A stretch of DNA of 20,557 nucleotides from Bdellovibrionia bacterium (GTDB lineage Bacteria > Bdellovibrionota > UBA1018). The DNA lies in the NCBI GenBank assembly GCA_045805065.1, contig JBJMMA010000012.1:1-20557 (forward strand), written 5' to 3'. Both the position numbers and the translations under genes were made by a program. Positions 9,157 through 20,557 of this stretch are shown here, piece by piece; the first letter of the stretch is position 1; each line of letters opens with the position of its first letter. The notes under the pieces were generated by a model that did not search any database, was not told where the DNA came from, and was given only the letters and a program-made list of their open reading frames with translations.

Positions 9157-9234
9157 GAGCGGCAAAAAACTGACGCTCAGCTCTGTTCGGACATTTTTTC
9201 TGACAGCTGTTTTTTCTGCCTTTTCTGAGCATCA

Positions 9235-9243
9235 TGCTAAAAT
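9235..9243 (+). promoter_or_regulatory. Candidate extended -10 promoter (TGcTAAAAT)
   Basis: TG-n-TAAAAT located 8 nt before in-frame ATG 9252. Confidence 0.35.
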
Positions 9244-9251
9244 TAGCTCAT

Positions 9252-10457
9252 ATGCACTCGATGCGTCAGATTGGCCCATTCCATTTCAGCATTTTAACTC
9301 TAGGTCTCTTGAGCAGTACTGCTTGGGCTGCGCAGACCACGACACCTCAAGCTCCCGCAAAAACTGTGATGGCTGCTCCATCTGCCACACCGAGCGCGAG
9401 TCCTGATCTGGGAAATCGAATCCAGGCTTACTTTTCTGATTCGAGAAAACAGCTGGGAAGCATGGAACCTTGGCAGCAAAGACTCTTCAACGAAGAAGCG
9501 GTACCTGACTATCAACGCTTTGTGCGCGGCTATCGCATGTCGAACACGACTCTCAATGCGGACATCGATCTTGAGAGCTTGAAAAATTTCTTGCGCTTTT
9601 ATGCGCCAAAATCCCTGAAGCGCGAAAAACCTTCGATTGTGGCCGTTTTAAAGCCTCAAGCCAATTGCTCAAAATGCGTATCTGGACTTCCTGAGTTGAA
9701 AACCATGGTCAGCTCTCGCCTGGAGCGCCGTGGGTTCAAAGTGGTTTGGGTTTCGGCTTCGGAGCTCGGTGAGGCAAGTCTCACGGGACAAGAGCTCGTC
9801 GCTGCCGCAAAACAATCCGCAACTCAGAAAGATGCTGTGGGAGCGCTTGTTGTGTATTGGCAGCGCTCGGTGGATGATGACGATGCCATGCATCCGGATG
9901 AGCGCCATTATACGATTCACTCCGCGCTTGAGCTCAGGGATCTGGCCAGCGCTCAGGAGCAGCTTGAAATCGCCGACAATGGAAGTTTTGAGCGCTCTGA
10001 AGGAAAGCTTCTGACCGATGCTTTTACGGAGATTGGCGCAAAGCTTGTGGATCTTGAAGTAAGCCAGGCTGAGATCAAGCGCGAAGAAACGACGATTGAT
10101 GTCATCGGCATCCATTCCTTTGCACAATATCAGGCTCTGAAAAACGCTTTTCAAGGCGCAATCAAAACCGGAACCCTGGAAGAACAGAAGATCTCAAGAG
10201 GTCGTGCGATTTTCGCGGTTTACTCCAGCGCGCCTGTTCAGAAGATTCAGCAAGCCATTGATTCGTCCAAGCCTGAGGGCTTGAAACTCGGTCCATCGAC
10301 GATCGAGGCCAATGAGATTCATCTTGAGGTCACGACCGCGCAAGCGGCGCCAAACTCAAGCCAGCCCCAAACTCAGCCGGCAGAGCAATCTGGAGCTCAA
10401 CCAAAAGCTGGCAAGCCAGCCCCCGCACAAGCCCCCGAAGGAGACCCCGAGGCATGA
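9252..10457 (+). CDS. Exported hypothetical protein (possibly DUF2066/FlgT-N-like), low-complexity termini
   Basis: Signal peptide ending TAWA; YQRFVRGY...ADIDLESLKNFL...KPSIVAV pattern; CSKC; Pro/Ala/Gln-rich ends; start 9234, 9252 or 9261; stop overlaps next ATG (ATGA). Confidence 0.7.
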   Translation: MHSMRQIGPFHFSILTLGLLSSTAWAAQTTTPQAPAKTVMAAPSATPSASPDLGNRIQAYFSDSRKQLGSMEPWQQRLFNEEAVPDYQRFVRGYRMSNTTLNADIDLESLKNFLRFYAPKSLKREKPSIVAVLKPQANCSKCVSGLPELKTMVSSRLERRGFKVVWVSASELGEASLTGQELVAAAKQSATQKDAVGALVVYWQRSVDDDDAMHPDERHYTIHSALELRDLASAQEQLEIADNGSFERSEGKLLTDAFTEIGAKLVDLEVSQAEIKREETTIDVIGIHSFAQYQALKNAFQGAIKTGTLEEQKISRGRAIFAVYSSAPVQKIQQAIDSSKPEGLKLGPSTIEANEIHLEVTTAQAAPNSSQPQTQPAEQSGAQPKAGKPAPAQAPEGDPEA

Positions 10458-11434
10458 AGTATTTTTTAGCATTGCCCCTCTGTCTATCTTTGATCGCGCT
10501 GGGAAGTACGTCTTGTCAGCGCTCACAGGCTTTCAAAAAGGATCAGGAGTATTACAAGCCTGAGGGTTCAACGAGCTATTACGACAAGGCAAATAGAAGT
10601 TCAGCCAGTCGCGTGGAATCCATGGGTCAGCCCAAGAAGAGAATCTTGGTGTTTGATTTCTGGAACGATACTCCAGTGAAGTCCGAAGTCGGAGGCTTTG
10701 CGGCTGATGAACTGAGGCGCGGGCTTTTCCTTACTCAGCGACTCATTCTTTCGCCTGAGATTAAAACTCAGTACGTGACTGAAGACTTTTTGGATGCTGG
10801 CCATGGCGGCACGCAGATCAAGGTCGCGCAACTGATTCGCGAAGGCAGAAAACTCGGCGTATCCGTTCTGGCCATTGGGCGCGTGACCAAGATCGTCTTT
10901 CGCCAACGCGGAGACGATGTCGGTTTGCTGAGACAAAAGCAATCCCTTGCAGGCGTTGACGTTGAAGTGAAGCTTTTTGATGTCTCAGGCGGTCGTGAGC
11001 TTCTGGCTGTTTCTCGCTCAGGCGATGCTTCGAGCAACTCGCTTGTGGCAGTGGAAGGTAAGAATCTCGAGTCGGCCCAATATCGCGCCGAGCTCGTTCA
11101 GATGGCTGTGCGGGATGCTGTCGCCAAGCTTGTGCCGGATGTGATCCGCGGCGTGGAAAAGCTTGCCTGGGAAGGGCGTATCGCTCGAGTCGTTGGAAAC
11201 AAGGTTTACGTGAACGCTGGACATGCTTCCGGGCTGATTACGGGTGATATTCTTCGTGTTCTTGCGCCAGGAGATGATATCTATGATCCAGCAACTGGAG
11301 CGTTTCTGGGCCGCACGAAGGGGCAACTCAAAGGAACGCTTGAAGTCGTAGATTTCCTGGGACCCGATGGATCGGTGACCGAAATCCATACCGGTGGGAA
11401 CTTCCAGGAGAATGACCTCGTTCAGCTCTACTGA
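10454..11434 (+). CDS. Lipoprotein with CsgG/TolB-N/FlgT-middle-like domain and FlgT C-terminal-like domain
   Basis: Hydrophobic leader ending STSC; PKKRILVFDF, V-x-VKLFDV-x-x-G; WEGRIARV-x-GNKVYVNAG-x-x-SG-x-x-x-GD-x-L-x-V...DPATG-x-FLG. Confidence 0.75.
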   Translation: MKYFLALPLCLSLIALGSTSCQRSQAFKKDQEYYKPEGSTSYYDKANRSSASRVESMGQPKKRILVFDFWNDTPVKSEVGGFAADELRRGLFLTQRLILSPEIKTQYVTEDFLDAGHGGTQIKVAQLIREGRKLGVSVLAIGRVTKIVFRQRGDDVGLLRQKQSLAGVDVEVKLFDVSGGRELLAVSRSGDASSNSLVAVEGKNLESAQYRAELVQMAVRDAVAKLVPDVIRGVEKLAWEGRIARVVGNKVYVNAGHASGLITGDILRVLAPGDDIYDPATGAFLGRTKGQLKGTLEVVDFLGPDGSVTEIHTGGNFQENDLVQLY

Positions 11435-11447
11435 AATACAATCTGAA

Positions 11448-12104
11448 ATGGAAATTGAGGTCAGAAGGCATTCGAAAGAATCGCCTTGGACTTACACGAT
11501 GCTGGATGCCCGCCAGCGCGAGATCGCCCGGCGTGTTCTTGAAGGCGGTCCTGGTGCGCTTCTCTTGTCCGAGCTCTCTCCCGTCATCACGGTGGGCAGA
11601 AGAGCTGCGGCTACGGATCTTCTGCTTCCTAAGGAAATGCTTGCGCGTGCAGGTGTGGAAGTCGTGCCGACGGATCGCGGGGGGCTTGCAACCTGGCACG
11701 GCCCAGGCCAATGGGTACTCTTTGCAGTCGATAGCCTCGAGCGCCTGACCGGGGATCGAAGAGGAGTTCGGAAAGCCGTCGATGCCTTGCTTGGCGTCGC
11801 GCTTGAAGTGGGAAAAACTTACGACCCTTCAGCAGAAATCCGATCGGGTGCTGAGATGGGTGTTTGGACTTCTCGAGGCAAGTTTGCTGCTCTGGGCGTC
11901 CACATCGATCATGGCGTGCTCTTGCACGGTCTATCTGTGAATGGCTTCAAATCGGAAACAAGCTTCATGGGGCTCAGGCCCTGCGGACTTGATCTTCCCG
12001 TGGACTATCTGGTGAAAGATCGTCCGTCCGAGTTTGATGAGCTCGGGCAGAAAATCTTGGCTCAGGCCCAAAGCAGGTTCACAAAGACGTTCACGAACAA
12101 GTGA
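11448..12104 (+). CDS. lipB: Lipoyl(octanoyl) transferase
   Basis: PVITVGRR, TDRGG-x-x-TWHGPGQ, KFAALGV, HG-x-x-VN, PCGL; ATG 11448 avoids overlap with upstream gene. Confidence 0.9.
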   Translation: MEIEVRRHSKESPWTYTMLDARQREIARRVLEGGPGALLLSELSPVITVGRRAAATDLLLPKEMLARAGVEVVPTDRGGLATWHGPGQWVLFAVDSLERLTGDRRGVRKAVDALLGVALEVGKTYDPSAEIRSGAEMGVWTSRGKFAALGVHIDHGVLLHGLSVNGFKSETSFMGLRPCGLDLPVDYLVKDRPSEFDELGQKILAQAQSRFTKTFTNK

Positions 12105-13017
12105 TCATTTCGACTTCCTGGATCGCGGTGTGCTCATCCAGATAATCCGTAATGTCCCAGATGCGTGGCTCGCTCCAGTCAGAGTCAATGACAACAACGC
12201 CTGGCCTTCCGTTCAAATCAAAAACAGATGCAGCAACAATGGAGTGGCCGCCGCCATTTCTCTCGCCAACCTTGCGTGGCACCCAAAGTCTTCGATCCAG
12301 TTTTGCGTAGGAAGCTGGTCGGATTCTCAAAAGATCAAAGGGCGAGGTTCTCATTTGAGTTCCGATATTGAATGAGATCAATACAGGGGCCCCTTGGGCA
12401 AGGCGACTCAGAAGGAAGTTACGGGCCCCTTGAGCGGAATCAAACCGATGGTTCTGGCAATGAAATCCAAAGCGTTTGCCATAACCATCCAGAATTCCAC
12501 GAATCGAATAACGATGCTGAAGGACCAGGTAATACTGATTGATGGAATCAGCCAGGAGAGAGGTGCGTCCTTCTTCTGTGGAAAGAGTTTTTAAGAGTGC
12601 GCCGTTTCCTCGGAATCCATCCATTGCCGTCTGAACCAGGAAATGGTTGATTGCGTAACCCGTGCAGGTGCCGCCCACTTGTGCGTAAGGATCCAGAACA
12701 TTCTCTAGCCCACGATCCGCGATCTGAATCAGTCCGGCTGGAACGTAAAGCACGTTCATGGTCTTTGGATCCAGGAGCATGTAGGAGTCGACTTGGCCAT
12801 TCGACTTTACGACGCGACCTAAGAACAATCCGGACCTTGGGGTGTTTTGATTGGGGAGCTCAAAGCGAAGCTGTGAGCCAACGGCAACCGGGTAAACGCC
12901 ACGCGAAACCGGATGATCCATCCGAACCTGAATCGCGTCTGGAGTTGAGCTTGCAATCGCAGGCAAGCCTTGGCTCAGAAGAAAGACCAGGCCCAGCAGA
13001 AACCGAATCGACTTCAT
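12091..13017 (-). CDS. Secreted papain-like (clan CA) cysteine peptidase
   Basis: Signal peptide MKSIRFLLGLVFLL...AIA; QVGGTCTGYA (Gln/Cys), GAPVLISF, GGHSIV (His), VVIDSDW (Asp in place of Asn of NSW). Confidence 0.7.
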   Translation of the reverse strand: MKSIRFLLGLVFLLSQGLPAIASSTPDAIQVRMDHPVSRGVYPVAVGSQLRFELPNQNTPRSGLFLGRVVKSNGQVDSYMLLDPKTMNVLYVPAGLIQIADRGLENVLDPYAQVGGTCTGYAINHFLVQTAMDGFRGNGALLKTLSTEEGRTSLLADSINQYYLVLQHRYSIRGILDGYGKRFGFHCQNHRFDSAQGARNFLLSRLAQGAPVLISFNIGTQMRTSPFDLLRIRPASYAKLDRRLWVPRKVGERNGGGHSIVAASVFDLNGRPGVVVIDSDWSEPRIWDITDYLDEHTAIQEVEMITCS

Positions 13018-13029
13018 TTGGGCCACTTT

Positions 13030-14214
13030 CTATTTATGATTGACCGTAAAGTCGTCCAGGATCTCGCCATGGATCGACAGAGTAACGGATCGGAGAACCT
13101 GATCGTTCACTTCAAAATGCGTGACTGTTCTTTCGCGGAACGAGTGAATGGAGTACGGGTTCTTCGCGCCGTAAACGCCCATTTTACCGCCGGCTGGGCC
13201 AGCAACAACATACTGAATTCCGTCTTTAACTGAGCGCTCGAAGATATGCGTATGTCCAGTCAGTACAACGTCTACGCCGTATGCTTCAAAAAGCGGCACG
13301 AATTGATTTCGCAAAACGATATGTTCCTTGCGGATCGCGCCCGGGCCATCAAAAAAGCCTTTGCTGTAAGGCGAGTGATGGAACATGACGATTTTCCATT
13401 GAGCGGGCTTGATGAGTTCGCTCTTCAGCCATTCCAGCTCAGGCTCAACCAGTGTCTTGTCGTCCTCAAAGTTTGAGTTGAGAGCCATGAGATGGATGCC
13501 ACCCAAGTAAGTGGAGTAGTGAGCGTCATGAGCTTTCAGCCTGAAAAAATTCTGCCAGTAATTGGTGTTCTCATCGGAACGATATTCATGATTTCCGATG
13601 ACAGCATAAGTGACGCGAGATCCGCCAATGATCTGAAGCGCGCGGAAGTAATCAAACCAATCCTGCATTTGCGCGCCTTCTTGCACCAGGTCGCCACCGC
13701 TGAAAATAGCGCTGCCAGGAAAAGTGGAGATCTCCTTGGCGATATCTTCTAAAAACTCGGGGCCTTCTTGCGCGTCCGCAATGAAAGAGAAGCGGACTGG
13801 CTGATGCTCGTCCGGGCATGGGATAGGAGCAATGACGTTTCTTTGGGACATGCCTGGAAGATAGTAGGAAACTTCGTTGCCGAATCCGCATTCAGCGACA
13901 GGGAGCTCGGCTGACCACGATACGCCATCGTGATGGGCTTCCACTTCGTTGAGCTGCGTGTTTCCGAGATAAGTCTGAACTCTTACAGGAGTCGTCGGGA
14001 GTCGGTTGCCGGTATAGCGCCAGCCAACAGCGATGTGACCAGTCCCGTGGGCAAAGAGGTAAGGCTCCACTTCAAAAACGGCGGCGTTTTGTTCCGCGAT
14101 TTCAACGTTTGTCGCTCTTTCAGAGTCGGCTAGGCCCAAGGATGAGCCCCAGACGCCACAGGCCAACGTAATGGCTGCAACAACGCCTAAAAGTGATCGA
14201 TGTTTTGTTGTCAT
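13030..14214 (-). CDS. Secreted metallophosphoesterase (purple acid phosphatase-like)
   Basis: Signal peptide; ADAQ, GGDLV, GNHE, HHSPY, GHTH motifs; ATG 14214 follows a G-rich RBS. Confidence 0.9.
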   Translation of the reverse strand: MTTKHRSLLGVVAAITLACGVWGSSLGLADSERATNVEIAEQNAAVFEVEPYLFAHGTGHIAVGWRYTGNRLPTTPVRVQTYLGNTQLNEVEAHHDGVSWSAELPVAECGFGNEVSYYLPGMSQRNVIAPIPCPDEHQPVRFSFIADAQEGPEFLEDIAKEISTFPGSAIFSGGDLVQEGAQMQDWFDYFRALQIIGGSRVTYAVIGNHEYRSDENTNYWQNFFRLKAHDAHYSTYLGGIHLMALNSNFEDDKTLVEPELEWLKSELIKPAQWKIVMFHHSPYSKGFFDGPGAIRKEHIVLRNQFVPLFEAYGVDVVLTGHTHIFERSVKDGIQYVVAGPAGGKMGVYGAKNPYSIHSFRERTVTHFEVNDQVLRSVTLSIHGEILDDFTVNHK

Positions 14215-14220
14215 GCTTTG

Positions 14221-14228
14221 CCCCCCCC
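14221..14228 (-). repeat. G8 homopolymer at the Shine-Dalgarno position
   Basis: Minus strand AAGGGGGGGG-CAAAGC-ATG. Confidence 0.7.
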
Positions 14229-14484
14229 TTACGTCTTCCAACTCGATGCCGCTACAAAACAGCGTGACAGGTATTGCTCTCGTAGCGGGCGGCGTTTGTC
14301 AAATCGGGGTTCTCTTGTAACTCCATGAGAACGTGGGCAAAACAGGGCGACGCGGGGTAATGATAGAATAAGTATCTGAAACTTCAGATTGTTTCTGCCT
14401 TTTTACTGAATCAGTGTAAGTGGATTTGCCGAAAGTAATGCAGTAACTCTGCGCGTTATTTTCCCGGCCCAAAGTACCCTGGTT

Positions 14485-15483
14485 TCAGTTGCTGCTGACA
14501 CTTAGTTGGCGATGATCTTTTGCAAACTCATTCAGCGAAGGATCATAGTACTTCAGTTTTGGATCTCGAACGAAAACGCGTTTGTCGAAGTCCACGTTTC
14601 CGCTGTCCCAGGTGGAGTCCAAGATGACCCAATGTCCGTCGATGAAGACTTGGTTCCAGGCATGAGTTTGAGTGGTGCCTGTTTGTTCCCAAGTCTGTCC
14701 TAACATCGGCCAAATGATTGCGCCGATAATCACCCGAGTTCTGAGTCCTGAGGCACGGGCTAGCGCCGCATAGAGATTTGCGTAGCCGTTGCAGATTGAG
14801 ACTCCCTCATGAAGCGTGGTCAAGGCATCGACAGACTTGGTCTTATAGGTGCCTCTGAAGTAGGAGTCCGTGTCATAAGCAATGTTATGAGTGATCCAAT
14901 CATGAATTCTCTGAGCCTTCTCGGAATCGCTTGAGGCACCCGCTGTGATATCGCGAGCCAGTGCCACAATCTCAGGATCATCGCTCTGCACGTCGCCACT
15001 TGGAAGAAGATAGCTCAGGTCGCGCGTGTCCGTGTTAGTTACGTCCACCTGACCGTAATAGGCTTGCTCTGAAGAAGATTGATATCGATTCGGGTTCTGG
15101 GAGTACCATGCCTTGATTCGGTAATTTCCCGGGCCATAAGGCAAATAGACGCGTCTTGAAAAATTTCCGCCCGTTGCTGACGCATAGACAGAAAGTGGCT
15201 TTTTGGTTTGATCGCTGAATTCGATTTGAATGTGCACAAGCGCAGTCCCTGATGGAAAGTTTGCGCTGAAAAGGTAGCTGCTATCGCTTGTCGATAGACC
15301 TCTGGAAAAGCTCTGCTCCTGAAGCGGAGGAGCTTGATAGGAGTCACTTGAATTGGCCGGAAGGGAATTCAAGACAGAGTTGAACGCGTCAAAGATTGAG
15401 CCCGCAAAACTTGGGCTTGCTACGAGCAGAGACAGGGTCGCTAATGAAAGCGTAGGTCCAATGAGCTTTTTCCGCAAAAACAT
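14485..15483 (-). CDS. Secreted transglutaminase-like (Cys-His-Asp) domain protein
   Basis: Signal peptide ending PSFA; IHDWITHNIAYD, GVSICNGYA, HAWNQV, WVILDSTWD; AAGGAG RBS before ATG 15483. Confidence 0.9.
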   Translation of the reverse strand: MFLRKKLIGPTLSLATLSLLVASPSFAGSIFDAFNSVLNSLPANSSDSYQAPPLQEQSFSRGLSTSDSSYLFSANFPSGTALVHIQIEFSDQTKKPLSVYASATGGNFSRRVYLPYGPGNYRIKAWYSQNPNRYQSSSEQAYYGQVDVTNTDTRDLSYLLPSGDVQSDDPEIVALARDITAGASSDSEKAQRIHDWITHNIAYDTDSYFRGTYKTKSVDALTTLHEGVSICNGYANLYAALARASGLRTRVIIGAIIWPMLGQTWEQTGTTQTHAWNQVFIDGHWVILDSTWDSGNVDFDKRVFVRDPKLKYYDPSLNEFAKDHRQLSVSSN

Positions 15484-15802
15484 CGTGGCTCCTTTTGGAT
15501 GTCGGGTGGGATCTGATTTCCCGAAATACGGCGTTACTTTCCTATAACGGACCAAAAAAGTCAAGTAACTAAAAATGGGTGAACTTTAGGTAAGTTATGG
15601 ATACTCAAGCGATAAAGTGGAAGCCTGGAGAACGCTGTAGGCCGGGTGTGGATATTTTTCCGTGATCTGCTTTGCGGCATATTCATGCCTGAAGTGAAAT
15701 TTTGAATGGATGGCGAAACTATTCTCCCGTCTCACTCGTAACACTGCACTCTGGCTATTGCGCGAACCCTATTGCCGGACAACCCTTTACGGAGAATTAC
15801 TG

Positions 15803-18130
15803 ATGAGTAGTACGTGGACAACCTCTGGGTTAAGTGCAGCCGCACTTGTCCTTTTAGCAAGCGGCTGTGAGCCCATCCAGCTTCCTAGCAACATCCAAAT
15901 TATAACGGCTTCCCCAAGTCCTTCAACAGACACGAAAGCCAGCCCAACACCGACTTCTACGCCTTCTGGGACTCCTACGGCAACTCCTTCGCCGTCGGCA
16001 TCGCCGACGAAGTCTCCTACGCCATCACCATCTCCTTCAGTATCGCCATCTCCTTCAGCATCACCTACGGTCACGCCCAAGCCAAGCCCGACTGTCACGG
16101 TGACCCCGACTCCTGCGCCTACTGTCTCGCCCCCGATTTCTGTCGGAGCAAAGATTACCGATATCAAAGTCAGCGCAACTTCTAGCCTGACTGCTCAACT
16201 CAATGTACCGATCACGTTTGGCATTCCATTTCCAAAAGGGGCGCTGCCATCTGGGAAAGTTGCGGTCTTGAGAGATCCAAGCACTCAGAGCGTGATTCCG
16301 ACTCAGTTTGAAATCAAACCCACGCATGATGACGGATCTGCAAGACATGCGATCGTCACAGCGATCCTGCCTCAAATTGGCGCAGGCGCTACAATGAATC
16401 TGGATCTACTCAGTGCTCAAGCTTCCCAGCAAACGCCAATGACCATCGCAACGCTTTTTAGCAAAGGTTTTACGACCTCCGTCAGCGTTACGATCAGCGG
16501 GACTGTCTATCAAGCCACTTTGAACACAAGTAACTATGCGTCCTTGCAAAAGGGAACCTGGCTTCAAGGACCGCTGGCAACAGAAGGGCTTTTCAAGGTT
16601 CCACTGACTGCAAATGGATCGGCGCATCCTCTTCTTCATGCGCGCTTTTATGTTCGTGCCTTCCAGGGCGGAACCAATGCACGCGTGGGTGTCTCCATTG
16701 AGAACACCGATGCTTACACGGCACCTGCCAACGTGACGTATGATCTGCAAGTGCAAGTGGGGGGAAAGACGGTTCTCTCGCAAGCAGCTGTCCCTCATTA
16801 CCATCACTCGCGTTGGTACCGGGTTTTCAACTACGGAGTGCAACCTAACGCAACTGTAGGACTCAATCCTCAGTTCCTCTTGAGCTCACCTGCGGTTCCT
16901 CACTACGATCCAGCACTCAAGATTGCCGACAGCGCAATTACCGATTGGGCAAATCGCTGGAGCTCGAGTAATGGGCTCATGCAAATTGGCCCTGTGAATG
17001 CGTATATGCCAACGACGGGTGGACGCCCGGACATTGGCCCTCTTCCTTCTTGGAGTGCAATCCATGTGCTCACACAGGATCCACGTGCTTATGATGTAGC
17101 TGTGGGCACGGGCTATCAGTCTGGCTCCTGGTCAATGCATTATCGCGATAAGGACACCGATCTTCCACTCAGCATTGATCGCTATCCTTATGCAACGATC
17201 CTGGGTCACACGGGCGATACAGTAAATCCTGCAACCAAGCAGGCTGAGGCATTCCCAGTATGTGCATCCGATTGCAGCACTCCGTACACGCACGATACTG
17301 CGCATACCCCATCGTTTGCTTACTATCCTTATCTCATTTCCGGGGACTATTTCCTCATGGAAGAGATGATGTTCTGGGGTTCCTACGAATTGTTCGAGGA
17401 TAATCCGTACTACCGCAACTTCGCGGATGGTCTTGTCAAAGCGGGTCAGGTTCGCGGTCAGGCATGGAACCTGCGCACCTATATGGAAAATGCGTATATC
17501 TTGCCGGATGATCATCCTTACAAGGCTTACTTCACGGATAAGCTCTTAAGGAATCTTGCCTGGTTCGATAAGACCTACGTTCAGAATACGGACAACGTAC
17601 TGGGTATCATTACGAATGGCTATGCCATGGCTTACAACAATGGAACCGGCATGGCGCCATGGATGCAGCACTTTTTTACGTGGTCCATTGGGAACGCGTA
17701 TAAAATGGGCTTCACGACTAGCAAGAGCTTCCTGACGTTTCTCTCGAAGTATCAAACCTCGATCATGACGGACCCGAGCTACTGCTGGATTGAGGCATCA
17801 TCCTATACGATGACGGTTCGTGCGTCCTCGACTTCTCCGTACTTCACGAACTTTGGAGACGTCTACAAAGCCACTGTCCCGTCCAACGTTTCCGGACTTG
17901 CTTGCGGAAGCCAGGAGATGGCAACTGCTCTGAGTCTCAAGGTGGGCGAGATGAGTGGATACGCTTCTGCAACGGAAGGCTATCCATCCAACTCGCAGCC
18001 TGCACTTGCGATCATCGTGGATGATGGAATGCCGAACGCCCAGGCGGCGTGGACTCAGTTCATGGCTCGTACCGTGAAGCCTGATTATTCCACGGACCCA
18101 GTTTGGGACATTGTGCCTGCTACGAAGTAG
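15803..18130 (+). CDS. Large lipoprotein: Pro/Ser/Thr linker plus PcRGLX/YetA-like (putative glycan-acting) module
   Basis: GGAGA RBS; lipobox LASGC; VPITFGIPFPKG...PTQ...DGSARHA N-domain; WLQGPL; aromatic-rich C-domain (YMPTTGGRPDIG, AHTPS, QVRGQAW). Confidence 0.7.
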   Translation: MSSTWTTSGLSAAALVLLASGCEPIQLPSNIQIITASPSPSTDTKASPTPTSTPSGTPTATPSPSASPTKSPTPSPSPSVSPSPSASPTVTPKPSPTVTVTPTPAPTVSPPISVGAKITDIKVSATSSLTAQLNVPITFGIPFPKGALPSGKVAVLRDPSTQSVIPTQFEIKPTHDDGSARHAIVTAILPQIGAGATMNLDLLSAQASQQTPMTIATLFSKGFTTSVSVTISGTVYQATLNTSNYASLQKGTWLQGPLATEGLFKVPLTANGSAHPLLHARFYVRAFQGGTNARVGVSIENTDAYTAPANVTYDLQVQVGGKTVLSQAAVPHYHHSRWYRVFNYGVQPNATVGLNPQFLLSSPAVPHYDPALKIADSAITDWANRWSSSNGLMQIGPVNAYMPTTGGRPDIGPLPSWSAIHVLTQDPRAYDVAVGTGYQSGSWSMHYRDKDTDLPLSIDRYPYATILGHTGDTVNPATKQAEAFPVCASDCSTPYTHDTAHTPSFAYYPYLISGDYFLMEEMMFWGSYELFEDNPYYRNFADGLVKAGQVRGQAWNLRTYMENAYILPDDHPYKAYFTDKLLRNLAWFDKTYVQNTDNVLGIITNGYAMAYNNGTGMAPWMQHFFTWSIGNAYKMGFTTSKSFLTFLSKYQTSIMTDPSYCWIEASSYTMTVRASSTSPYFTNFGDVYKATVPSNVSGLACGSQEMATALSLKVGEMSGYASATEGYPSNSQPALAIIVDDGMPNAQAAWTQFMARTVKPDYSTDPVWDIVPATK
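15911..16135 (+). repeat. Coding low-complexity (S/T-P)n linker
   Basis: SPSPSTDTKASPTPTSTPSGTPTATPSPSASPTKSPTPSPSPSVSPSPSASPTVTPKPSPTVTVTPTPAPTVSPP with diversified codons. Confidence 0.9.
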
Positions 18131-18137
18131 TGCGCAA

Positions 18138-19283
18138 TTAGTCGTGATACAGGCGATTGAGCCTGTTTAAAATGGACCGGCTGCAGTTTCGTTGTGCTTC
18201 GGCATAACGCTGCAGTCGGTTTTTTATTTCTGGAAATGCCGCGAGTCTTTCGTGCGGATTCAGTTTCAGACCATTGATGACAAACTCATGAAGCTCTTTG
18301 AGATGTTCCTCGTCGACTTTGGTTTTGAGCTGGTTTTGCAGATCGTTGAAGCGTTCATCGATGCTTTTGATGTACTCGTTATAAAGTCTTGGGTTGTCAA
18401 AGATGTTGTAGAGCTCGGCTTCAAACTGCGCAGGAGTTGCGGCGGATCCTTTCAGTGCCTTGAAATGTTTCTCAAAGGGGTGGTCCCCAAACATCAGAGT
18501 GTGAACCGCTACCGCGTGGCTATATAGATCACGAGAGGCTGAGGCGCGCTCCATGTCATCTACCACGAGTTCAGGTGGGGCGTATCCCTCGGTATGAACT
18601 CGTTGAAGCTGTCCGATATGCGCCAGGGTGTCGAAATCCGAGAGTGAGAAATGAAGTTTGGAGATATCGGGTTTCTCAAAATCAAACCCAGGCCTCGTCG
18701 TATAAAGAACATTCTCAGGTTTGATATCTCCATGGGCCAGTCCATGAGAGCTTAAGAGCGTGATCGCAGATAAAATGTCACGTTTGTATCTGAGCGCAAC
18801 TTCGAGTTTTGCACCAAAGTAGGGGTGTCTCGGATTGAGTTTTAGCGAAGGGGCGGCCGATTGCGCAGAACCGTTGGCAAGTTCCACAAGAACGACCTGC
18901 GATACGGACGGAGCGTGGTGAGGATCTTCTGAGATGAGTTTAAGGCCGGCAATGCCGTGTGAAAGAACGCTTTCTTTGTCTTCCGCGCGGGTGGGTTCCA
19001 GAAGCGCCCAGGATTCTTGGATGTCTTCTATGGTTGAGGAATGAATGGAGGGCTTAAATTCTTTCAGAGCTTTTTTGAGAACATGGCCTTGAGGATCTCG
19101 AAAGCTTACTTCATATACGTCGCTATAACCGCCTTTGCCGAGCTCACTTTTCACTTCCAGAACTTCACCGATCAACGTTCCGTCGCTGTAGAGCTTTCCT
19201 TTGGAGGCCGCAAAGGAGTGCCCCGTCGGCATGACAAGGAGCCATGCGAATAGAAGGAGAGCGTTATAACGCAGGCGGGGCAT
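18138..19283 (-). CDS. Hanks-type Ser/Thr protein kinase with N-terminal signal peptide
   Basis: LGKGGYSDVY, ALK74, HGD186IKPEN, D216FD, GYAPPE, RDLYS, PHER; leader MPRLRYNALLLFAWLLVMPTGHSFA. Confidence 0.88.
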   Translation of the reverse strand: MPRLRYNALLLFAWLLVMPTGHSFAASKGKLYSDGTLIGEVLEVKSELGKGGYSDVYEVSFRDPQGHVLKKALKEFKPSIHSSTIEDIQESWALLEPTRAEDKESVLSHGIAGLKLISEDPHHAPSVSQVVLVELANGSAQSAAPSLKLNPRHPYFGAKLEVALRYKRDILSAITLLSSHGLAHGDIKPENVLYTTRPGFDFEKPDISKLHFSLSDFDTLAHIGQLQRVHTEGYAPPELVVDDMERASASRDLYSHAVAVHTLMFGDHPFEKHFKALKGSAATPAQFEAELYNIFDNPRLYNEYIKSIDERFNDLQNQLKTKVDEEHLKELHEFVINGLKLNPHERLAAFPEIKNRLQRYAEAQRNCSRSILNRLNRLYHD

Positions 19284-19289
19284 AAGGTC

Positions 19290-19317
19290 TTATCGAAAGA
19301 AGGAGAGATTCAATTTA
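19290..19317 (-). promoter_or_regulatory. Sigma28 (FliA)-like promoter of the kinase gene
   Basis: Minus strand TAAA-N16-TTCGATAA, ending 6 nt before the ATG; no SD sequence in between. Confidence 0.5.
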
Positions 19318-19331
19318 AGGTGTTTACTTAT

Positions 19332-19353
19332 TTTATGTCAGATCCGACACAAA
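19332..19353. promoter_or_regulatory. Imperfect palindrome, candidate operator in divergent promoter region
   Basis: TTTATGTCAGATCCGACACAAA, 9 of 11 symmetric pairs. Confidence 0.35.
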
Positions 19354-19434
19354 TTGTTAATCGCTGCGTATACCTCTAGACTTGAAAAACACAAAGAGTC
19401 AAGCCTGCGTGGTTTGACGGGGTGGGGGATAAAT

Positions 19435-20556
19435 ATGAGTCAGGGAAAAAATAAGTTTAGGGGTATTGCGGGTTTTGCGCTGGTGAGCGGAATTGCTGCT
19501 ACAAGCGCGCAAGCTGCCGTGACTTCGGGACAGACCTATAAAATTGTCTCAGCTTGCAGTACATCCGGACAAGTCATGGCGGTTGCCAATGACAGTCTGT
19601 TGAATAATGCTTCGATTGTTCTTGCCGCAAGAAACGATTCAAAAAGCTCACAAGTTTTTAAATTCGACGCTTATGGAGGGGGTTACAAGATCACTGCGAT
19701 GAATAGCGGCAAAACGCTCAATATTGCCAACGCTTCCGCGGCAAGCAAAGCGCCTTTGGAGCAATACAAGTTCACTGCCGTGCCAAGCGAGATCTTCACT
19801 ATCGAATCCACCTCGGATGGTTATTCGCGATTGAAAAACGTTAACAGTGGCCTTTACCTGAATCTGGTCAAGGCCTCGATCGCAAACGGTACTCCGTTTG
19901 AGCAATACATCAGCAGCACGGCTTGCGCAGAGAAGTTCTCTCTCGTGGCGTTTAAAATGGCCTCACCAAGCCCGTCTCCATCGCCATCGCCGAGCGCGTC
20001 ACCTAAGCCGAGCCCATCACCGTCTCCATCGCCAAGTCCGTCACCCACCGTGGCAGCTCGCGATCCGCTCAAGCAACCTTTCGCAAGCAACAGTATCTGG
20101 AACATGCCGATCGGAAGCGGCGCCGTCTACGTGCCATCCAATCTGGCCCAGAACTCAAATCCTTCGAATAACATCTGGGCTCCGTTTCCGGGCATGGACG
20201 AAGATCTCATTGTTCTGACTCCAACGGCTCCCATGACTCAGGTCTACTACAGCAGTGCTGGCTGGAGCGGAGCCAATCGGTGCACGCCTACCGGAAGCTT
20301 GCAGACTTCCGTTCCTATGCCGAGCAACTTCATCGTCCCTAATGGAAACGGAAACGTCTCAGCTGCCTTCTTGATGGCAGACAAGCGCTCGATCGTTCAG
20401 ATGCAACCCGTTGCTCGCTGCACGTCCGGCGGCTACGCTACAAGCTATGCTTTCTGGAGTGCCGTGGATCTCTACGGCGATGGCCGTGCGGGCGCTCATG
20501 GTGGCTCAGGACTCTCGGCCATCGGCGGAACGATTCGTGTGGGTGAACTGAGACCT
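19435..20556 (+). CDS. Secreted ricin-B (beta-trefoil) lectin domain protein with Ser-Pro linker and uncharacterised C-domain; 3'-truncated
   Basis: Translated by hand (not in ORF track): MSQGKNKFRGIAGFALVSGIAATSAQA leader, YKIVSA/YKITAMNSGKTLNI/YSRLKNVNSGLYLNL repeats, (SP)n, RDPLKQPFASNSIWNMPIGSGA...GAHGGSGLSAIGGTIRVGEL; no stop before window end; GGGGG RBS. Confidence 0.88.
   Translation, partial: MSQGKNKFRGIAGFALVSGIAATSAQAAVTSGQTYKIVSACSTSGQVMAVANDSLLNNASIVLAARNDSKSSQVFKFDAYGGGYKITAMNSGKTLNIANASAASKAPLEQYKFTAVPSEIFTIESTSDGYSRLKNVNSGLYLNLVKASIANGTPFEQYISSTACAEKFSLVAFKMASPSPSPSPSPSASPKPSPSPSPSPSPSPTVAARDPLKQPFASNSIWNMPIGSGAVYVPSNLAQNSNPSNNIWAPFPGMDEDLIVLTPTAPMTQVYYSSAGWSGANRCTPTGSLQTSVPMPSNFIVPNGNGNVSAAFLMADKRSIVQMQPVARCTSGGYATSYAFWSAVDLYGDGRAGAHGGSGLSAIGGTIRVGELRP
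19963..20049 (+). repeat. Coding (SP)n linker
   Basis: SPSPSPSPSPSASPKPSPSPSPSPSPSPT. Confidence 0.9.
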
Positions 20557-20557
20557 G

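Follow-up and report, generated by a model that had tools for sequence, protein, structure and literature searches.

In the DNA of an uncultured Bdellovibrionia bacterium, a relative of Bdellovibrio from soil (assembly GCA_045805065.1, contig JBJMMA010000012.1), of which a stretch of 20,557 nucleotides was analysed that is called the window below, there is a gene on the minus strand whose predicted product is a protein kinase of the Hanks type preceded directly by a Sec-type signal peptide. Judged from the sequence, the kinase domain is very probably exported from the cytoplasm. That the exported enzyme is also released by a type II secretion system (T2SS) and then acts on the proteins of another cell, most likely of a prey cell, is less certain, and we give this proposal a chance slightly below even. 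Hanks kinases of bacteria are regarded as enzymes of signalling within the cytoplasm, and those known to be secreted travel via injection systems. If the proposal is correct, the general secretory route can serve to export protein phosphorylation, and the question arises from where an exported kinase obtains its ATP. If the organism is a predator, post-translational manipulation of the prey would be added to an arsenal that has been described mainly as one of hydrolases.

According to the proposed mechanism, the Sec system would move the precursor across the inner membrane, signal peptidase I would cleave it after Ala25 to give a soluble Ser/Thr-type kinase in the periplasm, and the T2SS would release the mature kinase from the producer cell. 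The released enzyme would phosphorylate proteins of another cell, most likely of Gram-negative prey with a breached inner membrane, and it would draw on the ATP of the attacked cell because the periplasm of the producer has none. It would be active once it is folded and meets ATP, without the usual switch that involves the αC helix and the activation loop.

Leader and topology of the precursor

The open reading frame, which agrees in its coordinates with those given in the first-pass annotation, encodes 381 amino acids from an ATG (Table 1), and a start further upstream is impossible because an in-frame TAA lies two codons 5′ of this ATG. The n-region of the leader, MPRLRYN, contributes R3 and R5 and is followed by a hydrophobic core of 11 residues, by P19 and G21 and by the sequence S-F-A|A-S, which conforms to the −3/−1 rule. 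A complete Pkinase domain begins only three residues past this leader of 25 residues, so that the claim of the first-pass annotation that a signal peptide stands directly ahead of the kinase domain holds. Cleavage by signal peptidase I probably takes place after Ala25 and would yield a soluble mature kinase of 356 residues. It should be noted that leaders were called here and below by simple rules of our own applied to the sequence (n-region, hydrophobic core, −3/−1 site, Kyte-Doolittle hydropathy and charge of the flanks). The precursor has no lipobox, since its only cysteine is C367, and its n-region has no twin-arginine motif (S/T-R-R-x-F-L-K), the two arginines not being adjacent. Past residue 45 the best 19-residue Kyte-Doolittle mean is 0.79 (at most 1.12 across 10 core proteins of the family), from which it follows that there is no second transmembrane segment; no other domain was matched either, in agreement with the earlier statement that a second membrane span and a sensor domain are missing.

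The leader is a property of the family rather than of this one protein. It is retained in 10 of the 10 core rows of the family alignment, though its sequence can hardly be aligned among the paralogs. When the leader rule was applied to the 39 proteins of the wider family, 33 satisfied it, as compared with 7 of 115 other proteins, one of these seven being a family member of which only 107 N-terminal residues are present; the leader is therefore not there by chance. On inspection, four of the six members that failed the rule turn out to carry a leader all the same, whereas P0013 and P0029 lack one and P0015 is a doubtful case. In each of the 12 core proteins considered, positive charge is higher in the flank that precedes the hydrophobic run than in the one that follows it, which predicts that the C-terminal kinase is outside. 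This charge bias argues against an anchor that leaves the kinase in the cytoplasm, which the first-pass annotation had named as one of the ways in which its interpretation might fail.

The other way, a true start downstream, is part of an alternative in which the kinase is cytoplasmic after all, either because translation begins at Met18 or because a reverse anchor keeps the domain inside. This is the least likely of the alternatives and we hold it to be very improbable. It could explain why no Shine-Dalgarno sequence is visible in the DNA upstream of the first ATG and why there is an in-frame ATG at codon 18, and it would agree with the topology of the characterised bacterial Hanks kinases, which as far as is known keep their catalytic domain inside. 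Met18 is, however, itself without a Shine-Dalgarno sequence in the upstream DNA inspected. It is the sole other in-frame start ahead of a block, residues 28–43, that is conserved in the family and contains the invariant Y32. Conservation of this block means that translation starts before it, which in most members can only be ahead of the hydrophobic stretch: of the 10 rows aligned, no more than 4 have Met in the Met18 column, and in the remaining rows the leader must therefore be translated. The leader is furthermore kept by the paralogs and the environmental orthologs and by most proteins of the wider family, always with the N-in charge bias in the core proteins, and an ordinary kinase of the same genome is built in the ordinary way.

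Kinase domain and family signature

The protein is a member of the Pfam family Pkinase (PF00069) by score, fold and catalytic residues, the score being 64.6 bits versus a cut-off of 31.7 (E = 1.3e-17, residues 43–349). An AlphaFold model calculated with the 10-row family alignment has a mean pLDDT of 87.5 and a pTM of 0.84, and only the leader falls below a pLDDT of 50. With Foldseek the model matches solved kinases at E values of about 1e-12, and the nearest solved folds are tied between CLK1, Sky1p/SRPK, ASK1 and ULK1 with a Z of about 21 and a root-mean-square deviation of about 3.1 Å (VIA-align, residues 25–355). About 270 residues are aligned in these matches (Foldseek, VIA-align) at an identity of only 15–20%. 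Among proteins of solved structure, the one closest in sequence is a calcium-dependent protein kinase (CDPK) from Cryptosporidium (E = 1e-8 for the protein alone and 1.5e-12 with the profile). The motifs GKGGYSDV, K74, HGDIKPEN, DFD and APPE, which had been named in the first-pass annotation, were all found at their coordinates. Its description of the activation segment as very short is, however, overstated: the segment from D216 to E238 has 23 residues, which is at the short end of normal, that of PKA having about 25. What is unusual is that 12 additional residues are inserted between N191 and D216.

The family signature was derived from an alignment of 39 proteins. H184, D186, N191, D216 and P237 are found in 39/39, D218, E238, D252 and R346 in 38/39, K188 in 37/39 and K74 in 35/39 (with Arg in three more and, counting Gly, a replacement in four). 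Judging from this alignment, the phosphotransfer residues and the marks of a kinase for protein substrates are under strong constraint; the pair of the APE glutamate and its arginine distinguishes protein kinases from small-molecule kinases. Two parts of the classical on/off switch are systematically changed, namely the DFG glycine and, probably, the Lys-Glu bridge. The first change is a clear departure from the Pkinase pattern, position 218 being Asp in 38 of the proteins and Glu in the remaining one. At the αC glutamate the family probably also departs from the pattern: the column of E90 contains Glu in only 12/39. In the profile comparison with a solved kinase the N-lobe aligns only weakly. 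We suspect that the extra aspartate, D218, takes over the positioning of Lys74. The non-RD catalytic loop together with the intact K74, D186, N191 and D216 would fit an enzyme that does not need phosphorylation of its activation loop. Indeed, the non-RD loop, the compact activation segment, the Asp in place of the DFG glycine and the unconserved αC glutamate suggest an enzyme that is active without the usual switch. The signature (D-x-D for DFG, αC glutamate unconserved, C-terminal helix with an invariant cysteine) can be viewed as a natural experiment, in which a kinase active site may be held without the classical regulatory switch.

The same changes could mean that the protein has a kinase fold and yet is not a conventional protein kinase, but rather a pseudokinase, a binding protein or an enzyme with another chemistry or substrate (a lipid, a sugar or an envelope component). 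In this case one would not be surprised that Glu is found at the αC position in so few members, that the DFG glycine is replaced by Asp almost throughout, that K74 is Arg or Gly in four, or that the protein is sent to a compartment without ATP; two relatives have weak matches to the Pfam families for APH or Kdo kinases, which are at or below the cut-off. We consider this to be quite improbable in view of the complete conservation of H184, D186, N191 and D216, of K188 in the HxDxKxxN motif of 37 proteins, and of the APE glutamate, the αF aspartate and the αH-I arginine in 38, and because the full C-lobe aligns to protein kinases with a Z of 21.

Beyond the kinase fold, the members share a near-invariant cysteine (at the position of C367 in 37/39), which lies 10–37 residues ahead of the C-terminus, with a basic amphipathic stretch behind it, even though the proteins that share it are otherwise less than 30% identical. 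An unpaired conserved cysteine is unusual in an exported protein. The basic C-terminal helix with its cysteine is a family-specific module, which may serve in membrane targeting or as a redox latch, though these are guesses. Four features are shared in the family: the leader, the non-RD HxD loop, D-x-D in place of DFG, and the C-terminal helix with the cysteine.

Table 1. Features of the kinase gene and its product in the window (positions in the window; residues of the precursor)
Feature	Position	Strand	Remarks
Whole gene, precursor of the exported kinase, 381 amino acids, stop codon included	18138..19283	-	Open reading frame, ATG start
Sec-type signal peptide, residues 1–25 (MPRLRYNALLLFAWLLVMPTGHSFA)	19209..19283	-	Predicted signal peptidase I site SFA|AS; leader in 10/10 core rows
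Hydrophobic core of the leader, ALLLFAWLLVM, residues 8–18	19230..19262	-	
Protein kinase domain, residues 43–349	18237..19157	-	Pfam PF00069; the model gives the kinase fold over residues 25–355
Gly-rich loop GKGGYSDV, residues 49–56	19116..19139	-	
β3 Lys74 (ALK)	19062..19064	-	Lys in 35/39 family proteins, Arg in 3
Glu90, candidate αC Glu (E-x-x-x-L94)	19014..19016	-	Glu in 12/39 family proteins
Catalytic loop HGDIKPEN, residues 184–191, non-RD	18711..18734	-	H, D and N in 39/39
Core-family-specific insert TTRPGFDFEKPDISKL, residues 195–210, between catalytic loop and metal-binding Asp	18654..18701	-	
DFD replacing DFG, residues 216–218	18630..18638	-	D216 in 39/39; D218 in 38/39, Glu in the other
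APPE, residues 235–238, end of the activation segment	18570..18581	-	P237 in 39/39, E238 in 38/39
C-terminal helix outside the kinase fold, residues 351–381, basic amphipathic, carries the sole Cys	18141..18233	-	
Cys367	18183..18185	-	Invariant in 10 core rows; 37/39 of the wider family
Sigma-70-like promoter match, CTGACA-18-TAAATT	19312..19341	-	Consensus match only; ends 29 bases before the ATG

Relatives, secretion route and gene surroundings

There are five Pkinase loci in the genome. Four of them, on three contigs, encode proteins with the build of leader and kinase (364, 392, 399 and 381 amino acids), each with a leader of its own; the three others are 34–37% identical to the window copy. 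A count of similar signal-peptide kinases in the genome, as proposed in the first-pass annotation, thus yielded four deep paralogs of the same build. Two of the four stand in tandem on the same strand, 55 bases apart (contig C121, 3379–5812). The fifth locus codes for a conventional enzyme with an N-terminal HRD/DFG kinase domain, one membrane span in the middle of the protein and a C-terminal domain outside. Since it is present alongside the leader-kinases, one and the same genome builds both topologies.

Relatives elsewhere are rare. A word-indexed search of 5.8 billion clusters returned only six homologs, which are 36–83% identical, 376–411 residues long and all equipped with a leader. In a profile search of 1.84 billion representatives there were 11 matches below 1e-30 and 141 below 1e-10. 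Among the 150 matches listed, 36 combine the non-RD loop with D-x-D in place of DFG; one of these, a protein of 1358 residues, is probably a chance match, and the rule misses a few further members (e.g., those with D-L-E, and fragments). When the protein was used as query against 41 genomes, real matches were obtained only in the genome of the window and in that of its one relative from the same genus, the other five matches having E values of 1e-6 or weaker and lying in much longer proteins. Likewise, when 301 Bdellovibrionota genomes sampled across the phylum were searched with the profile (E ≤ 1e-15), only 2 gave a match, and both belong to the genus of the window; the copy in the second is cut by the end of its contig. 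Application of the family profile to the loci from a scan of genome contigs left only this record of the same genus as a member, the rest being ordinary DFG kinases. A scan of metagenome contigs with the core alignment, from which 80 loci were profiled, yielded no true member of the family, the three D-x-D matches among them being long unrelated proteins. In the protein atlas only generic kinase clusters were found, with few taxon labels (Spirochaetota and Pseudomonadota).

In the phylogenetic tree the core family is one clade (95/98), within which the four paralogs lie on separate deep branches. The window copy forms a group with four environmental proteins (100/100), as does another paralog with P0007 (100/100). 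The position of the paralogs on deep branches next to environmental sisters indicates that the duplications predate these relatives. The outgroups are long-branched, which makes the rooting of the tree unsafe.

The genome provides a possible route of release. The secretin GspD scores 493 bits versus the NCBIfam cut-off of 351, and the genes of the T2SS cluster, which looks complete, are in the order GspC (a weak match), D, E, F, G, then three more pseudopilins, of which one resembles GspJ, and finally K. With the Sec leader and this gspC-D-E-F-G...J-K cluster, the two-step export route that the first-pass annotation had postulated is available. No scorable sequence signal is known for the substrates of a T2SS. 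Neither a sheath of a type VI secretion system (T6SS) nor VirB4 was found in the assembly, which is 94% complete. From B. bacteriovorus it is described in passages of PMC12622784 that native Sec signal peptides of about 20 residues sufficed to bring a luciferase reporter into the supernatant, and a Bd0468-mCherry fusion is cited there as being secreted to the bdelloplast. PMC7925074 describes nucleases that B. bacteriovorus secretes.

Delivery of the kinase into prey is plausible. The old paralogs, the fast divergence and the patchy occurrence of the family form the pattern expected of effector families. Several observations nevertheless weigh against a T2SS-released kinase that acts on prey. 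The first ATG lacks a Shine-Dalgarno sequence, as already mentioned, and the αC glutamate, found in only 12 of the 39 proteins, would in ordinary kinases point to little activity or none. No mechanism is known by which a folded protein of 39 kDa could cross the inner membrane of the prey. The neighbourhoods of the three other paralogs share no gene with that of the window copy. Outside the genus, the family was not found in any of the other 299 sampled Bdellovibrionota genomes, and it is therefore not a general tool of predation. All ten distant relatives that were checked are metagenome singletons of unplaced origin, so that the family may serve a wholly different purpose. And even the predatory lifestyle is inferred: the genome is that of an uncultured metagenome-assembled organism, and it is the record of the same genus that carries the family label (uncultured Bacteriovoracaceae bacterium).

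If one goes further, the family would be an undescribed class of Sec-exported bacterial kinases with a rewired active site, which are turned on by meeting ATP in or next to another cell; the four of this genome would rewrite the phosphoproteome of the prey, and the cysteine helix would be a latch, or a device for membrane targeting, that reacts when the protein passes from an oxidising into a reducing compartment. Taken as a whole this is somewhat unlikely.

The cell that is attacked need not be a bacterium. The kinase could be an effector against eukaryotes (protist grazers, fungi or oomycetes) and act in the eukaryotic cytosol. Its best matches by sequence and fold are all eukaryotic (CDPK with E = 1e-8, MAPKAPK2/3, CLK1, SRPK and ASK1); the identity to them of 15–20% is, however, also seen with many Hanks kinases from bacteria. 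That the phylum does not have the family as a general trait would likewise fit eukaryotic targets. In one relative, the metagenome protein P0136 (460 amino acids), a DnaJ J domain (Pfam E = 2e-23) separates the signal peptide from the kinase. An exported J domain makes sense only where there is an Hsp70, and a destination of this kind is therefore implied. The fusion is, however, confined to a single cluster with two members on one 3.6-kb contig and is therefore only a hint at an action in a cytoplasm. The products of neighbouring genes, a ricin-type lectin and a protein that weakly matches a rhamnogalacturonan-lyase-like domain (see below), would also suit eukaryotic targets. Against these points it has to be said that no injection system was found in searches for a T6SS sheath and VirB4, and that the protein lacks motifs for targeting within eukaryotic cells, for instance a CaaX box at its end. 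In our estimate a eukaryotic target has only a small probability, and prey bacteria are still what we have in mind when we speak of another cell.

As regards the local setting, the kinase gene converges with the gene for a protein of 806 residues, the two gene ends being 7 bases apart, and diverges from the next gene, 70 bases upstream. Because of these neighbours on either side it is probably transcribed alone. Its base composition is unremarkable. Over about 11 kb of the window (9234–20557), every gene but one begins with a signal peptide or a lipobox, the leaderless exception being a lipoate-ligase-like gene (11394–12104). The others code for an unknown protein of 407 residues, a CsgG-like lipoprotein, a protein of 311 residues with a weak match to BtrH_N, a metallophosphoesterase, a transglutaminase-like protein, the 806-residue Pro/Thr-rich lipoprotein, the kinase and a ricin-lectin protein. 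The leaders of the neighbouring transglutaminase-like and ricin-type lectin genes are built like that of the kinase. The 806-residue protein (15710–18130, plus strand) is a probable lipoprotein (LLASGC) with a Pro/Thr/Ser-rich linker of about 90 residues and a sub-threshold match to PcRGLX, a rhamnogalacturonan-lyase-like N-terminal barrel (17 bits versus a cut-off of 22); its large C-terminal part has no family match. The ricin-lectin protein (19354–20556, plus strand), whose gene is cut at the end of the contig, is a secreted protein with a ricin-type β-trefoil lectin domain (E = 1e-24), a (Ser-Pro)n linker and another domain without Pfam match.

One of the other paralogs has a different setting. 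On contig C143 (6618–10234) it starts 26 bases after a gene for a protein of 342 residues, which has no Pfam match and ends like an outer-membrane barrel, GVGYNF. At 404 bases past the paralog there are genes for an extracytoplasmic function (ECF) sigma factor and for a membrane protein of 171 residues. The barrel gene and the exported kinase may form an operon.

This arrangement brings up the alternative that the kinase is a resident of the envelope, which stays in the periplasm or at the surface of the predator, cleaved or anchored, and phosphorylates proteins of the envelope or of a shared compartment when ATP leaks from the prey. It would then be the bacterial counterpart of the eukaryotic secretory-pathway kinases. 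The leader evidence is for such a resident identical to that for a released enzyme. An uncharged run of 21–24 residues, present in several relatives, could anchor the protein, the paralog between the barrel-like gene and the ECF sigma gene would be well placed for a function in the envelope, and the single conserved cysteine could form an intermolecular disulfide in an oxidising compartment. On the other hand, no source of ATP is known in the periplasm. In the window kinase P19, G21 and a small-x-small site after a core of only 11 residues favour cleavage, and no conserved gene for an envelope partner was found near the paralogs. We therefore consider permanent residence in the envelope to be unlikely.

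Comparison with known systems

In the open-access literature searched, no description of a Sec-exported bacterial kinase of the Hanks type was found, nor any of a kinase among the secreted proteins of the Bdellovibrio type (in PMC11656739 the word kinase occurs 0 times). The closest known systems share part of the properties of the window kinase and its family.

With the Hanks-type kinases of known structure (CLK1, Sky1p/SRPK1-2, ASK1 and ULK1) the window kinase shares the full bilobal fold over residues 25–355, and also the Gly loop, the β3 lysine, HxDxKxxN, the metal-binding aspartate, APE, the αF aspartate and the αH-I arginine. It differs from them in that its family has Asp instead of the DFG glycine and does not conserve the αC glutamate, in the 12-residue insert before DFD and in extra helices of the C-lobe. 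The Sec leader and the C-terminal cysteine helix of the window kinase are both lacking in CLK1, Sky1p/SRPK, ASK1 and ULK1.

Receptor kinases of the PknB/Stk1 type belong to the same Pfam family and are represented in the same genome by the conventional kinase mentioned above (contig C60). In that enzyme the N-terminal kinase domain is cytoplasmic and a membrane span leads to the C-terminal domain outside, whereas in the window protein it is the kinase itself that stands behind the export signal. The window protein scores only 26 bits with PknB_PASTA (NF033483), for which the cut-off is 450, and it has no membrane span after the kinase and no PASTA or extra domain. No NCBIfam model came close to its threshold, the best match being the defence kinase MADS6 with 57 bits versus a cut-off of 460. 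An interpretation as part of a defence system was set aside because of the leader.

Translocated effector kinases of bacteria use signals for type III or type IV secretion systems (T3SS/T4SS) and are not known to carry a Sec leader. Among them are YpkA/YopO, LegK1-4/7, SteC, NleH/OspG and XopAU, as well as CstK, which follows the T4SS route. These enzymes likewise have the kinase fold and work on the proteins, and with the ATP, of another cell, as is proposed for the window kinase, and they show a similarly patchy distribution and expansion of paralogs. The window kinase differs from them in having a Sec leader and, in its genome, a T2SS, with neither a T6SS sheath nor VirB4 having been found. 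The window protein reaches 20.3 bits with XopAU (NF041408), the cut-off being 450, and has no match to LegK1 (NF043056), to which two of its distant relatives score 21–28 bits versus 550.

In its architecture, the window kinase resembles some eukaryotic kinases. Fam20C, VLK and the exported FIKK kinases of Plasmodium, and also the ROP and WNG kinases of Toxoplasma, likewise have a signal peptide directly ahead of the kinase domain and act in the secretory pathway or vacuole or in the host cell. All of these use the endoplasmic reticulum and export pathways of eukaryotes; a specific relationship in sequence was not seen, and none is among the best matches of the window kinase by fold or sequence. 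As in the genome of the window with its four leader-kinases, the FIKK kinases have undergone a lineage-specific expansion.

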